This document shows, piece after piece, positions 25,550 through 59,146 of a stretch of DNA of 64,000 nucleotides. A program made the position numbers and the translations under genes. The DNA lies in NCBI GenBank assembly GCA_043826355.1, contig JBDRQI010000011.1, positions 21,418 through 85,417 of the forward strand, read 5' to 3'. The notes under the pieces are model-generated. The model made no database searches and was not told the origin of the DNA. It worked only from the letters and a program-made list of their open reading frames with translations. The first letter of the stretch is position 1. The number at the start of each line of letters is the position of its first letter. This stretch comes from Candidatus Omnitrophota bacterium (GTDB lineage: Bacteria; Ratteibacteria; UBA8468; MWAK01).

Positions 25550-25670
25550 AAGTGGGCGAGACAGGACTTGGCGCCGTTCGGCTTTCACTGCGCCTCAGGT
25601 CGGCCCCCCGCTGGTATTGCTCCTTAATCAGTCGCAATATACCTGACTTCGCTCCTTTCAAGTCCTGTCT
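25550..25670 (-). ncRNA. tRNA-3'-end-associated structured module (copy 2), unknown function
   Basis: A 12-bp inverted repeat (25559-25570 / 25659-25670) closes an 88-nt core homologous to 57142-57225. The distal arm is part of a 21-nt exact copy of the tRNA-Val 3' end. Confidence 0.55.
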
Positions 25671-25686
25671 TCAGGATGCTTAGAAG

Positions 25687-25759
25687 TGGGCGAGACAGGA
25701 CTTGAACCTGTGGCCTTTCGGATGTAAGCCGAATGCTCTGCCAGCTGAGCTACTCGCCC
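25687..25759 (-). tRNA. tRNA-Val (anticodon TAC)
   Basis: Folded by hand into a cloverleaf: acceptor GGGCGAG/CTCGCCC, D stem GCTC/GAGC, anticodon loop CTTACAT, T arm ACAGG-TTCAAGT-CCTGT. CCA is not encoded. Confidence 0.9.
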
Positions 25760-33480: not shown

Positions 33481-34764
33481 ATGAACTATCCATTTTTTAT
33501 CGCGCGGCGTTATTTCCGCCGGGGCAGGGGCGGTTACCTTTTTTTAACCAATCTCTTTGCTATTATCAGCGTAGCGGTGGGTGTGGCCAGCCTGATTCTG
33601 GTTCTGGGCGTAATGAACGGGTTTGACCGGGACCTGAAACAAAAGATAATCGGTGTTTTCCCGCCGCTGGAAATTAAAATTCCGTATGATTCTGATTTCG
33701 CCCGTATTGAAAACCGGGTCACCTCTTTTCCGGAGGTGGTTGCCGTGGCTCCGTTTTCCGAAACCCAGGCTATCTTTCGTTCCAAAGGTTTCCTGACTGC
33801 CGGGCTTCTGCGCGCGATTGACCCGGAAAGGGAAGATGCGGTTACCGGGTTTCAAAAATTCCTTATTTCCGATTCCAAAGATTCCTCCCGCCCCTCCCCC
33901 CCCAGGGGAGAGGGCCGGTCAGGCTTCGCCTCGTCAGAGTGCGCCGAAGTCTCAGGCGACGCCCAGGCGAGAAATGGTGAGGGGGAAATAAGGTGGGGGG
34001 GCGGCTTAGTCCTCGGTTCGGAACTTGCGCAAAACCTTCGGGTGGGTGTTGGGGACCAACTGGAAATAATTACCGGGTTCGGCGTAAAAACCCGCACTCT
34101 GCCGGTGGTTGGAATTTTTCGAACCGGGCTTTATCATTTTGATGTTGCCATGACGTTTGTTCCGTTATCGCTGAGCGAGGGTTTTTTTCCGACCGGCGCC
34201 CGGCCGGAAGCGTTGGGTGTAAAGATAAAAGATATTTATGCGGCGGAACTGGTATCCCAGAAAGTCACCCGGGAATTAGGGCCTTCTTTTCGCGTGGAAT
34301 CCTGGATTAGCAAAAACCGGATTCTTTTTTCGGCTCTGGCGCTGGAGCGGCGTGCAATGGCAATTATTCTGATTTTGATAATTTTTGTGGCTGGTTTTAA
34401 TATCGCCACCTGTCTGATGATTACCGTCTGGCGGAAGAGCAAGGAGATTGGAGTTCTCCGGTCTATGGGTGTGAGCGCTGGCGGTATCCAGGCCATTTTT
34501 TTGTGGATGGGGTTCTTGACTGCATTATGGGGAGTGGCAGTTGGTTTAGCTGTTGGCCTGTCCTTGGCTTATGTCGGAGACCATTACCAGCTGGTAAAGT
34601 TGCCGGGATATGTTTACGACCTTTCGTACCTGCCGATTAAGGTCCGGGGTTTTGATGTTATCTGGATTACGATAATCTCTTTTGCGATTGCGCTGGCGGC
34701 CTCGATCTTCCCGGCCCGGGAAGCGGCCCGGGTGGCGCCGGCAATTACGCTGCGTTCAGAGTAA
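33481..34764 (+). CDS. lolE: Lipoprotein-releasing ABC permease LolC/E family
   Basis: [13 protein letters not shown]-terminus, 4 TM with a large periplasmic loop and a FtsX-like C-terminus. The loop carries a ~40-aa repeat-derived insertion. Confidence 0.88.
33886..34005. repeat. Nested repeat insertion (PSP hairpin split by a GAAGTC-core module) in frame in lolE
   Basis: cccctcccccccaggggagaggg + cggtcaggcttcgcc...gcccaggcgagaaa + tggtgaggggg. The interior is the reverse complement of 27206-27260. Confidence 0.8.
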
Positions 34765-34772
34765 AGCGCTCG

Positions 34773-34936
34773 GATTATCTTTTTTGCTCACACGCTGCGT
34801 GTCGGACAAGACTACGCAACTCGTAAGCGAGCCTCGCCGTGTCTTTGTCTATATTTCAGGCAAATCACGGCCACTCACTTACTCGTTTTGCTTGTCTTGT
34901 TTCCGTCACTCCGCGAAGTGTGCAAAAAAGATAACC
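34773..34936 (-). ncRNA. ~160-nt extended hairpin element, copy B (lolE-lolD spacer)
   Basis: Terminal inverted repeats ttatcttttttgc / gcaaaaaagataa. Colinear with 57315-57481 in reverse complement, with compensatory stem changes. Confidence 0.6.
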
Positions 34937-34971
34937 TCGCTTAGCAGAAAAACTAAAAGACCTTTAAAACT

Positions 34972-35649
34972 ATGGAAATAACAGCCAGAGGTTTGACGAA
35001 AATTTACTCCGACGCCGGGAACCGGGTGGTGGCGCTTGACGGGGTTGACCTGACCTTGCAATCCGGAGAAGTGGTAGTCCTCCTGGGTCCTTCCGGGTCC
35101 GGCAAGACCACTCTCTTGAACCTGCTTTCCGGGCTGGAAGTCCCCAGCGAAGGCGAGGTTTTGCTTGACGGAGAGCATCTTTCATTTCTTTCCGACCGGA
35201 AAAAATCTTTTTTACGCAACCGTTCTTTTGGTTTTATCTTTCAATTTTTTAATCTTTTGCCGGAATTTACCATTCTGGAAAATACGTTGCTGCCCTCTTT
35301 AATCGGCAAACGCGGACGGGAATTTACTTCGGTCCGGAAAGAAGCAAAAACGCTCCTGGAGGAATTAGGCCTGGGCAACCGTGCCGAAGCTCTTCCCTCC
35401 GAACTTTCCGGCGGCGAGAAACAGCGGGTGGCTATCTGCCGCGCCTTGATTAACCGGCCGGGTTTCGTCTTTGCCGATGAGCCGACCGGAAACCTTGACC
35501 GGGAAAACGCGGAAATTTGCCTTAACCTTTTTCGGCAAATGATTATCCGAAACGGCACCGGATTCATAATTGCAACCCATAACCAGGAGATTGCCGCGGC
35601 TATGGCTGCCCGTACGGTGCGTCTAAAAAGCGGCAAGGTAATTCTATAG
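34972..35649 (+). CDS. lolD: Lipoprotein-releasing ABC ATP-binding protein
   Basis: Walker A GPSGSGKTT, signature LSGGEKQR, Walker B FADEPTGNLD. Confidence 0.9.
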   Translation: MEITARGLTKIYSDAGNRVVALDGVDLTLQSGEVVVLLGPSGSGKTTLLNLLSGLEVPSEGEVLLDGEHLSFLSDRKKSFLRNRSFGFIFQFFNLLPEFTILENTLLPSLIGKRGREFTSVRKEAKTLLEELGLGNRAEALPSELSGGEKQRVAICRALINRPGFVFADEPTGNLDRENAEICLNLFRQMIIRNGTGFIIATHNQEIAAAMAARTVRLKSGKVIL

Positions 35650-57046: not shown

Positions 57047-57118
57047 GGCGGTGTAGCTCAGCGGTAGAGCAAGCGGCTCATACCCGCTATGTCTGGGGTT
57101 CGAATCCCCGCACCGCCA
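57047..57118 (+). tRNA. tRNA-Met-type (anticodon CAT; elongator Met or Ile2, not distinguishable here)
   Basis: Cloverleaf folded by hand: GGCGGTG/CACCGCC acceptor, GCTC/GAGC D stem, anticodon loop CTCATAC, T arm TGGGG-TTCGAAT-CCCCG. CCA is not encoded. Confidence 0.9.
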
Positions 57119-57132
57119 CATTGTAAGATTAC

Positions 57133-57243
57133 TGGGATTCGAAGAGAGCGAAGTCAGGAGCTGCGACGAGAAGGAGCAGCGACAGCGAATGGCCGACCCG
57201 AGGCGCAGTGAAAGCCGAGCGGCGCCGAATCCCCGCACCGCCA
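57133..57243 (+). ncRNA. tRNA-3'-end-associated structured module (copy 1), unknown function
   Basis: tgggattcg pairs with cgaatccc. The 84-nt core is homologous to that of the tRNA-Val locus. The module ends in an exact 18-nt copy of the tRNA-Met 3' end (57226-57243 = 57101-57118). Confidence 0.55.
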
Positions 57244-57314
57244 TATAAAAGTATAGTGAATAGTGAACGGTAAAAAATTTTAAGTATTAAATTAATTAGT
57301 TTTTCTTCAAGAGA

Positions 57315-57481
57315 GGTTTGTTTTTTTTGCAACACTTCGCGGAGTGACAGCAACAAAACAAGCAGTACGACGGCATGAGTAGCCGTGGCTCACCCGAATT
57401 TAGGGTGAGAACACGGAGAGTCTCATGACGGAGTTGCGTAGTTTTGTCTGGCACGCAGCGTGTGTTGCAAAAAAAACAACC
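57315..57481 (+). ncRNA. ~160-nt extended hairpin element, copy A (upstream of dnaX)
   Basis: The terminal inverted repeat ggtttgttttttttgcaacac / gtgttgcaaaaaaaacaacc encloses arms colinear with 34773-34936 (reverse complement). Confidence 0.6.
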
Positions 57482-57490
57482 GAACGCCCT

Positions 57491-59146
57491 ATGGGATACC
57501 AGGTGCTTGCCTTAAAACACCGGCCCAGAACCTTTTCGGAAGTTCGCGGCCAGGAGCAGATCACCACTGCGCTGACCAGAAGCCTGGCGGAAAAACGGAT
57601 TGCCAACGCGTATCTTTTTTCCGGCCCCAGGGGCGTGGGTAAGACCTCGGTTGCCAGAATCCTGGCCCGAAGCCTTAACTGCGTCAACGGGCCGCTTCCG
57701 GAACCTTGCAATGATTGTGAGTACTGCCGGGAAATCCTGGAGGGCCGCAATCTGGATTTTTTGGAAGTTGACGGCGCCAGCAATCGGGGGATTGACGACA
57801 TAAGGGCTATCAATGATAATACCCGCTTTATGCCGATTAAGAACCGGTATAAAATCTACCTGATAGATGAAGTTCATATGCTGACCGACCCTGCTTTTAA
57901 CGCAATCCTAAAAACCCTGGAGGAGCCGCCGGAACATGCCAAGTTTATCTTTGCCACCACCCATCCCGACAAACTTCCACCAACCATTGTCTCCCGCTGT
58001 CAGCGTTTTGATTTTCACCTTATTTCAACCAATGAAATCACCCGCCACCTGGCTGAAATTGCCGGAATGGAAAATATTCGGATAGAACCAGCCGCTTTAT
58101 TGCGTATCAGCCAGTCGGCGGCCGGTTCTTTTCGCGATGGGCTCTCAATTCTTGACCAGCTGGCTTCGTTTTGTTTCGGCGAGCAGATAACAGCGCTTGA
58201 CGTGGAAAAGATGTTGAGCCTGGTGCCGGAAAAAATTTATCTGGACGCGATTCAGTTGTTCCGTTCCGGAAATAAGCGGGGTTGCCTGGAGTTGGTCGCC
58301 CGGGTTTCTCAGTCCGGTTACGGCCTTTTCCAATTCGCTTCCGGGGTCCTGGAGTTTGCGCGCCACCTTGTTTTAATCAAAGCCGGAGCAGGGGACCTGG
58401 CAACTGACGCGGTTACCCCTGAATCGGCGCAAACCCTGACCGGGCTCGCCGGCCAGTTTACCATGCCGGAACTCTTAAGTCTGCTGGAAAAACTTGCCGA
58501 AGAACGCGACAGGTTAAAACACGAAGACCTGCTTCAGATCCGTCTGGAAACAATCTTTTTGAAGATGGCTGAGATTTTTGGTAAATCGGAAAAAGTAATT
58601 ATTGAGCCGGTTATTCTGAAAGCGGAACCGGTGCTCAAAAAACCTGTTTTGGAAAATCAGGCAGAAGCGGCTGCCGTCAGAAAAACAATAAAAACGGAAA
58701 AAGGGGCGCCGGAAGAGGTTGCGCCGGAAAGACCGGCAACCGACTTGTGGCAGTTATTCCTGGAAGAGGTCGGCAAGGAAAAGCCGTTTCTTTTGCCGAC
58801 TTTAAAAGCCGGGCGGCTGAAAAAAATGGAAGCGGTTCACAACGGAAAAACGGTGCACCTGAGTTTTCGGCGGTCGTTTGAAGAAGGACTCTTAAAAAGC
58901 AACCGGGCGGTTCTGGCTGAAATCTGGTCCCGAAAATTTGATTCCGGAAACGTATTATTCGAAACCGTCATTGAAGAGGGAAAAAAGTTCGATGAAGCCA
59001 GGGTTCGGCCGCGCCATTTAAAAAGCGAACCCGGCGAATCGGGGCACTCTGCTTCGGCCAGTCTTATTCCTGAAGAAGAAGACCTTGTGCGGCGGGTTCT
59101 GGGAATGTTTGACGGAGAGGTAACATCCATTAAAAAGGAGATTTAA
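57491..59146 (+). CDS. dnaX: DNA polymerase III subunit tau (gamma/tau)
   Basis: MGYQVLALKHRP start typical of DnaX. GPRGVGKTS, Zn module CNDCEYC, DEVHML and VSRCQRF motifs. The ORF-track start 57425 lies inside the hairpin element. Confidence 0.93.
   Translation: MGYQVLALKHRPRTFSEVRGQEQITTALTRSLAEKRIANAYLFSGPRGVGKTSVARILARSLNCVNGPLPEPCNDCEYCREILEGRNLDFLEVDGASNRGIDDIRAINDNTRFMPIKNRYKIYLIDEVHMLTDPAFNAILKTLEEPPEHAKFIFATTHPDKLPPTIVSRCQRFDFHLISTNEITRHLAEIAGMENIRIEPAALLRISQSAAGSFRDGLSILDQLASFCFGEQITALDVEKMLSLVPEKIYLDAIQLFRSGNKRGCLELVARVSQSGYGLFQFASGVLEFARHLVLIKAGAGDLATDAVTPESAQTLTGLAGQFTMPELLSLLEKLAEERDRLKHEDLLQIRLETIFLKMAEIFGKSEKVIIEPVILKAEPVLKKPVLENQAEAAAVRKTIKTEKGAPEEVAPERPATDLWQLFLEEVGKEKPFLLPTLKAGRLKKMEAVHNGKTVHLSFRRSFEEGLLKSNRAVLAEIWSRKFDSGNVLFETVIEEGKKFDEARVRPRHLKSEPGESGHSASASLIPEEEDLVRRVLGMFDGEVTSIKKEI

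Follow-up and report, generated by a model that had tools for sequence, protein, structure and literature searches.

Long-hairpin intergenic repeats at gene borders in a Ratteibacteria lineage, probably mobile, with one copy directly in front of dnaX

Among the repeats that have been described in bacterial genomes, the REPINs are doublets of REP sequences that form hairpins and are mobilised by RAYT (Y1) transposases (Bertels & Rainey 2011, PMC3116915), and compensatory changes are frequent on the two sides of their hairpins (PMC3116915). Compensatory changes that keep the structure at the RNA level were also reported for bcr1 of the Bacillus cereus group, and the ERIC-like and Correia elements have TA flanks and affect the fate of mRNA (PMC3184786). 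An earlier note on the DNA analysed here had described a hairpin in front of dnaX as a probable functional fold, either an RNA stability or processing element or a protein-binding hairpin, and had argued that a plain MITE would not be expected to show compensatory substitutions; because such substitutions are documented for REPINs (PMC3116915) and bcr1 (PMC3184786), this premise fails. Based on a comparison of related genomes, we found that the hairpin belongs to a family of previously undescribed, strongly structured long-hairpin intergenic repeats, hereafter rods. They are probably a non-autonomous mobile palindromic repeat of the REPIN/ERIC/MITE type that colonises gene borders in one Ratteibacteria lineage.

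The window, i.e., the whole 64,000-nt stretch of DNA that was analysed, contains copy A upstream of dnaX and copy B, which is antisense, between a lolC/E-like and a lolD-like gene (Table 1). Both are colinear, 57300-57495 (+) against 34760-34950 (-), with a column identity of 84%, and the shared blocks that had been quoted for 57315-57481 and the reverse complement of 34773-34936 are present. Each copy, as had been proposed, folds into one long imperfect hairpin; the predicted minimum free energies (MFE) are -82.4 kcal/mol for copy A and -79.2 kcal/mol for copy B (z = -9.0 and -9.3), and none of 200 dinucleotide-preserving shuffles folded as well as either copy. The extent of about 160 nt that was initially given holds for the hairpin at 57315-57481, which is the core of the element, but not for the conserved unit, which has a length of ~191 nt and runs from GTTTTTCTTCAAGAGAGG (57299) to CCGAACGCCC (57489) with TA on both sides; TA at the junctions recurs from copy to copy. 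The family consensus consists of a T-rich 5' extension and foot (TTTTTCTTCAAGCGAGG), a rod of ~165 nt and a 3' tail (CCGAGCGCT..TA). The whole element forms a palindrome from AAGCG..GG to CC..CGCTT, and the T-rich 5' extension adds 3-10 nt outside the repeat, so that the termini lack clean inverted repeats. At its 3' end, copy B overlaps the TAA stop codon of lolC/E (34762-34764). A different structured module was found at 57101-57243 and 25550-25704, behind tRNA genes, where it duplicates the tRNA 3' end; as it lies directly upstream of copy A, the tRNA-dnaX spacer holds two different inserted elements.

Table 1. Positions of the rod copies and neighbouring features in the window, and loci of the 240-244-nt subfamily
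Feature	Position	Strand	Basis or remark
Copy A of the rod repeat	57299..57489	+	Family alignment boundaries; covariance model (CM) R1 match 199.5 bits
Make-up of copy A			5' T-rich extension and foot (GTTTTTCTTCAAGAGAGG), 167-nt imperfect hairpin, 3' tail (GAACGCCC)
Long imperfect hairpin (rod) of copy A	57315..57481	+	MFE and z as given in the text; 47-pair consensus structure
TA dinucleotide, 5' junction of copy A	57297..57298		Read from the sequence
TA dinucleotide, 3' junction of copy A	57490..57491		Shares its A with the dnaX ATG; read from the sequence
Copy B of the rod repeat	34764..34953	-	CM match 175.6 bits
lolC/E-like permease gene	33481..34764	+	Stop codon adjoins the 3' end of copy B
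lolD-like ATPase gene	34972..35649	+	Start 18 nt past the 5' end of copy B
tRNA gene	57047..57118	+	Upstream of copy A
In-frame ATG inside the 3' arm of copy A	57425..57427	+	Not conserved as a start codon
dnaX (DNA polymerase III gamma/tau)	57491..59146	+	NCBIfam dnaX_nterm
Subfamily of 240-244 nt	G000:C3:53947-54187; G003:C208, C122, C190, C78; G004:C90:23709-23952

The earlier note had known two copies of the element, and the repeat is real, but the count for the genome is 24 distinct copies (BLAST and iterated nhmmer). The source genome (G000) is a metagenome-assembled genome (MAG) of 1.87 Mb in 38 contigs with 50% G+C and a completeness of 86%, and its DnaX shares 73% amino-acid identity with that of a Candidatus Ratteibacteria bacterium MAG. 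Searches with a covariance model of 178 positions and 47 pairs revealed 10-37 copies in each of four sister species (model counts 37, 25, 20 and 13), 8 and 4 copies in two other genera of the same family and one copy each in a few genomes from a further family, while most of the 65 genomes of the class had none; a search at the phylum level returned the same 65 genomes. All of the rod copies are intergenic. No match to Rfam 15 was found for 57230-57520 at E ≤ 10, the window gave no more than two tRNA matches at the Rfam gathering threshold, and a full-text literature search returned no description of hairpin repeats in Omnitrophota or Ratteibacteria. Two subfamilies differ in the basal stem (GTCTCTTTTGCAACAC… and GTTTGGTAAGCAAAAC…), each with its own complement kept. 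Moreover, a subfamily of 240-244 nt is defined by an extra apical hairpin of ~64 nt; the occurrence of this same hairpin in three species indicates that the apex can carry cargo that spreads with the element. Weak model matches (38-58 bits, 205-225 nt, several per genome) were also found in the class relatives G049, G061 and G018, e.g., at G049:C4:118-329, and may belong to long-hairpin repeats that form sister families outside this Ratteibacteria family.

The pairing of the two arms is kept throughout the family. RNAalifold placed 37 copies in one rod with 47 pairs in seven helices, and in 27 of these pairs changes on both sides were kept. Standard pairs filled 96.0% of the stem cells compared to 84.4±0.5% after shuffling, the number of double-change cells was 213 compared to 65±6, and none of 500 shuffles reached any of five covariation measures; sliding the 3' partners by 1-3 columns lowered pairing to 28-45% and left 8-38 double-change cells. 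The examples from which covariation had originally been proposed, i.e., acaaAac/gtTttgt versus acaaGac/gtCttgt, cAg/cTg versus cGg/cCg, catgag/ctcatg versus gtaagtgag/ctcgcttac and the apical stems, are compensatory and recur through the family, and the idea of a functional fold under constraint is borne out to the extent that the covariation persists in sets of 37-78 copies. Conservation is highest in columns within and next to the internal loops (ACAAGCA, GAG, AACACGG, GAG.CTC and GTTGCGTAG), with ACAAGCA, AACACGG, GAG.CTC and GTTGCGTAG as near-invariant blocks. The conservation of internal loops seen between the first two copies extends to several blocks, but the 'ttcgcggag' loop varies (CTTCACGGAG, CTTAGCGGAG, CTTGCGGAG), and so does the sequence of the apical loop, which had been regarded as similar. 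Strong covariation together with conserved loops is, however, insufficient to call a regulatory RNA, because a mobile hairpin under selection produces the same pattern.

The comparison of relatives revealed sites at which one species has a rod and another has none. In the source genome, the rpsS-rplV spacer has 238 extra bases (L007:1439-1676); in relatives' contigs from three other metagenomes the flanking ribosomal-protein genes match and this stretch is skipped exactly, which leaves a clean empty site where 2, 13 or 22 other letters stand instead. In relatives the spacer has a length of 12-23 nt, and its shortest empty form, TAA-TTATTTAT-CT-ATGGCT, has a single TA. Additionally, two genes that are separated by a copy in G002 have counterparts in the source genome (C30) that lie 41 nt apart with a GAGGTG-N3-ATG ribosome site, and a copy of G003 is missing from contig C7 of the source genome. 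At the dnaX site, a copy of type I is present in G000 and G002, and a rod runs into dnaX on the X12 and X6 contigs; in G004 a copy of type II follows the first ~38 nt of a type I copy, and no rod was found in G001, which belongs to the same genus, or in G005, G006, G007 and G008. Such re-use of a site is not restricted to dnaX. Remnants of older copies, 5' stubs of ~40 nt that span about model positions 3-41, were detected 15-40 nt upstream of full copies at at least eight loci, four of them in the source genome (contigs C28, C8, C13 and C4). Furthermore, two copies carry a 29-nt insert, and the same small hairpin repeat adjoins a RAYT gene elsewhere in the genome; this repeat (CCCTTTCCAACGCTCTGGAAAGGG) is nested in the copies at C1:30642-30837 and C8:8435-8623. 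Presence and absence at a given site, re-occupation that leaves stubs, and the nesting of other repeats are all marks of mobility and speak against a dedicated regulatory RNA.

A copy at a given site is mostly not most closely related to its counterpart at that site in another species (ranks 10-34 of 39 in five of eight pairs), and the two often fall into different subfamilies. For the dnaX site, where copies are 86-90% identical between species and the flanks are unalignable, purifying selection on orthologous copies was considered; this explanation is weakened by the tree, which places same-site copies mostly in different subfamilies. Copy A and the copy of G002 at the same site differ by four kept double changes, and selection on resident copies could equally explain such compensatory changes. 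Within a genome, no near-identical pair was found; identity between two copies reaches 90% at most and thus gives no evidence of recent bursts.

Several spacers next to tRNA genes showed further rearrangements. In G001 (L139, G001:C27), no spacer separates the tRNA 3' end (…ccccgcaccgccac) from the dnaX ATG, and thus dnaX would be translated there from an almost leaderless RNA after tRNA processing; in G006 a duplicated tRNA 3' end lies between the tRNA gene and dnaX. A rod is present between two conserved tRNA genes in G002 (L050) and G003 (L059); in G002 the same spacer has 15 nt of the tRNA 3' end duplicated, and in the source genome (G000:C36:42880-43420) it holds an unrelated stretch of ~230 nt with tRNA-like fragments.

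The placement of the rods was counted over the 64 copies of G000, G002 and G004, with the distance measured from the stem base. The 3' end lies 3-15 nt from the stop codon of a convergent gene in 27 copies and 8-12 nt from a co-directional ATG in 14, and it abuts the 3' end of a convergent tRNA in about seven; ARAGORN confirmed three of these tRNAs, all in G000. On the 5' side, the distance to the neighbour is 20-90 nt. Both orientations to transcription occur at a ratio of about 2:1 in favour of antisense, and the flanking genes are ordinary housekeeping genes such as rplV, rplF, tsaD, ruvC, an RNase E/G-like gene, lolC/E, lolD and dnaX. None of the 27 abutting stop codons is TGA compared to 31% of the long ORFs genome-wide (p = 4e-5), and 12 of the 14 abutting starts read TATG compared to a genome baseline of 33% for T at -1 (p = 9e-5). 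The absence of TGA and the enrichment of TATG indicate that TA marks the 3' junction and usually the 5' junction as well; TA was found at both junctions of most copies. This fits insertion at TA and would agree with a TA target duplication, for the proof of which the filled and empty pairs that were compared are too diverged. The tails differ with placement: GAACG or GAGAG was found in 11 of the 14 start-abutting copies compared to three of the 27 stop-abutting ones (Fisher p = 3e-5), and the stop-abutting copies have the tail GAGCGC. This difference could arise from a subfamily preference or from later adaptation.

A mobile repeat is the most probable account of these observations. Copy A would have been inserted into the tRNA-dnaX spacer within the genus and copy B right behind the lolC/E stop codon. 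The mobilising enzyme would be supplied in trans and would recognise the whole-length hairpin with its conserved internal loops, probably on single-stranded DNA. Lineages that keep their pairing would go on spreading, which may have produced the compensatory pattern. Insertion at TA could rebuild the codon at the junction, since a terminal A or G of the element would complete TA to TAA or TAG, and a T before ATG would leave the start intact, and this would make copies tolerable flush with the essential genes dnaX, rplV, rplF, ruvC and tsaD. Effects on the mRNA stability or translation of the neighbouring gene would then be secondary. A host-level RNA role is compatible with the data, which do not lend it support.

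In a second reading, the rods may be a new kind of element that seeks out gene borders. In this case, an unrecognised enzyme would join the 3' end of the single-stranded hairpin, in one orientation, to a TA stop, a TATG or a tRNA 3' end; the slot would be used again and a stub left behind, and sense copies would have been adopted by the host as leaders, possibly trimmed by RNase III, for dnaX, rplV and rplF, which lack a Shine-Dalgarno motif. If this is true, it is the join that rebuilds the codon. Taken as a whole, we consider this scenario rather unlikely. The orientation-specific placement at TA stops and starts and the re-occupation of sites are in any case testable clues to how hairpin repeats without an ORF move.

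For the preferred reading, i.e., a repeat mobilised in trans, the enzyme was searched for among the related genomes, and the incompleteness of the MAGs weakens all of the negative results of this search. Of the five rod-rich genomes, four have Y1_Tnp genes (RAYT or IS200-type), and so do 35 of 61 related genomes, whether or not these have rods. None lies next to a rod among the 61 genomes, an absence that is weak evidence in incomplete MAGs. The source genome has its own RAYT-like Y1_Tnp gene of 143 aa (C1:46368-46799), which is flanked by unrelated REP hairpins of the GTAGGGG type (G000:C1:46213-46890). A second ORF with a Y1_Tnp domain (G000:C6:62480-63230) is bracketed by unrelated 25-bp inverted repeats (TTAGGGACAGCCCCCATATTTTT) and seems to be a small IS-like unit of its own, with no relation to the rods. 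A specific RAYT link was therefore rejected, as neither the phyletic pattern of Y1_Tnp nor the flanks of its genes show a specific association with rods. A Y1/HUH transposase of the RAYT-like kind would nevertheless be the leading candidate, since no other transposase class is present in most rod-rich genomes, with a TA-specific DDE enzyme as the alternative.

DDE_3 of the IS630 type was found in one of the five rod-rich genomes. An intact gene of this type with 343 aa lies at 994-2025 of L134 (G003:C132), ~350 nt upstream of a rod with a tRNA gene in between. As a parent of the rods, an IS630-type element was rejected because the ends of the DDE_3 candidate (GCGTAATAATCTTTAC / GTAAAGTATATTATGC) are unlike the rod. 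A retro-mobile origin (SINE-like, or derived from a group II intron or retron) was discarded as well, given that reverse transcriptase (RVT_1) is missing from G000, G001, G002 and G004 and occurs within the genus only in G003. A transposase-bearing parent whose terminal inverted repeats explain the conservation, which the earlier note had named as evidence against its own view, was looked for and not found, and no pair of solo arms brackets an ORF in G000. Rod orientation, compared with local GC skew as a proxy for the replication strand on draft contigs, was positive in 11 cases and negative in 13; the missing bias argues against a strict IS200/IS605-like mode.

The position of copy A also bears on the start of dnaX. 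The 3' arm adjoins the ATG as had been described, with the stem base CC (57480-57481) 9 nt before 57491, and no Shine-Dalgarno motif is present between the two. An in-frame ATG preceded by ggagag does exist at 57425, but the suggestion that the arm supplies the start of DnaX does not stand, as this ATG is missing from the same-site copy of G002 and G004 has another subfamily there. With 57491 as the start, the alignment to the NCBIfam DnaX profiles begins at residue 1-3 of the protein, with dnaX_nterm covering residues 3-359 at profile positions 1-354 (E = 2e-121), and the N-terminus MGYQVLALK is conserved in relatives. Judged by these alignments, 57491 is the true start of DnaX, and the 573-aa ORF from 57425 is an artefact of the insertion, given the DnaX profiles and the fate of the upstream ATG in G002 and G004. 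Rods in the spacers of Ratteibacteria MAGs, even in a ribosomal-protein operon and at the start of dnaX, can thus mislead gene callers, and they can break assemblies. Essential genes here begin 9-10 nt behind a rod of 165 nt without a Shine-Dalgarno motif, which makes them a natural test case for translation initiation in the phylum.

A rival explanation is a host function at the RNA level. The rods would then be modules that serve the host in operon transcripts, as long double strands that act as RNase III sites or exonuclease barriers, with the covariation reflecting selection on resident copies, and sense copies would provide dnaX, rplV and rplF, all without a Shine-Dalgarno motif, with a very short leader or a split ribosome-binding site in which GAGG stands at the 5' foot, the hairpin is looped out and 9-10 nt remain to the ATG. 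Copies within operons and flush with start or stop codons, the tight spacing of the stem to the ATG in the 14 start-abutting copies, their distinct tails and the kept double changes between same-site copies all agree with such a role, and secondary RNA effects of this kind are known for ERIC, Correia and bcr1 repeats (PMC3184786). Family members were also found in metatranscriptome contigs of the study from which the source genome comes. These were diverged members in two of the three RNA runs, at low depth and in reads without strand information, and the source organism itself, which reached ~46× in the DNA run, had no contig in any of the three metatranscriptomes. Sister species manage without a rod at the same genes, as G001 does at dnaX and the relatives do in the rpsS-rplV spacer, and since rods occur in both orientations to transcription, two different RNAs would have to work.

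The pairing itself is informative in this respect. A function of RNA from one strand predicts that G·U pairs are kept far more often than A·C mismatches. Over the 78 distinct copies that were aligned to the model, there were 142 G·U, 63 A·C and 3349 Watson-Crick cells; two pairs contribute 57 of the 142 G·U, and by pair position G·U was commoner at 21 and A·C at 14. G·U thus exceeds A·C only weakly, and neither strand is clearly the working one. The ratio of G·U to A·C was 20:10 in sense and 29:23 in antisense copies, a difference in the direction that an RNA role predicts but not significant (p = 0.36), so that it is independent of transcript orientation. Both strands thus preserve complementarity to about the same degree (91% Watson-Crick). 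Overall, a host-serving RNA module is an unlikely explanation of the family.

Equal complementarity on both strands and the weak G·U bias would be expected if the rods were double-stranded DNA sites or cruciforms for a host protein that organises the nucleoid or acts in replication or recombination, dispersed and kept by the host, and the near-invariant internal loops would suggest sequence-specific recognition. Such sites, however, would have to turn over and leave stubs, with copy numbers from 0 to 37 among close relatives; there is no known candidate for the binding protein, and conserved asymmetric loops matter only if the strands separate, which makes this explanation very unlikely. It is scarcely credible that each rod is an independently transcribed sRNA gene with its own promoter in the AT-rich 5' region, because, despite the AT-rich stretch and the conserved T-rich extension before the hairpin and model scores of 160-205 bits for the forward strand compared to 35-45 bits for the reverse, scans found no sigma-70-like promoter and no intrinsic terminator at either copy in the window, the 5' region often consists of native spacer or of a stub left by an older copy, at least 13 copies would run head-on into the 3' end of a neighbouring gene and Rfam holds no relative.

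Considered as mobile repeats, the rods behave like elements of the REPIN/ERIC/MITE type. They share with REPINs that they are non-coding and extragenic and occur in tens of copies, that the whole unit forms one long imperfect hairpin with compensatory changes and asymmetric ends, and that their stubs look like the asymmetric footprints which REPIN excision is reported to leave behind; the genomes with rods also contain Y1_Tnp genes and REPs of the GTAG type. Yet they do not qualify as REPINs, since neither a REP doublet nor a cognate RAYT was found. The arms are not recognisable REP units and show no covarying REP-like self-pairing: a local 'clover' hairpin in the 5' arm is without covariation, as column 37 varies and the A in column 26, with which it would pair, does not, and CTAC-like 3' ends (GCGCTAC) occur only in a subset of copies. 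No RAYT gene is flanked by rods, the RAYT of the source genome has a different REP, the unit is ~190 nt long rather than ~70-110, and its 3' end is set precisely at gene borders.

The MITEs ERIC and Correia and the bcr1 repeats, to which the rods can be likened, are imperfect palindromes of 100-160 nt that are intergenic, co-transcribed and found in either orientation. The rods share TA at the flanks with ERIC-like and Correia elements and compensatory changes that keep the structure with bcr1, and, like all three, they can supply or abut gene ends. In contrast, they have no sequence or Rfam similarity to these elements and no parent IS was found, so that the features of a MITE are present in part only; their internal loops are the most conserved parts, and their sites are re-occupied by other subfamilies. 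Palindrome-associated elements derived from IS200/IS605 (single-strand 'peel and paste') are comparable in their dependence on a hairpin, the lack of a long target duplication and orientation-specific junctions with one end precisely against a short target. The rod differs in being one full-length hairpin instead of two subterminal ones and in having neither a GC-skew bias (11:13) nor a TnpA or TnpB neighbour. The notable features of the rods are that they are placed in an orientation-specific manner on gene borders that contain TA and that their sites are occupied again.
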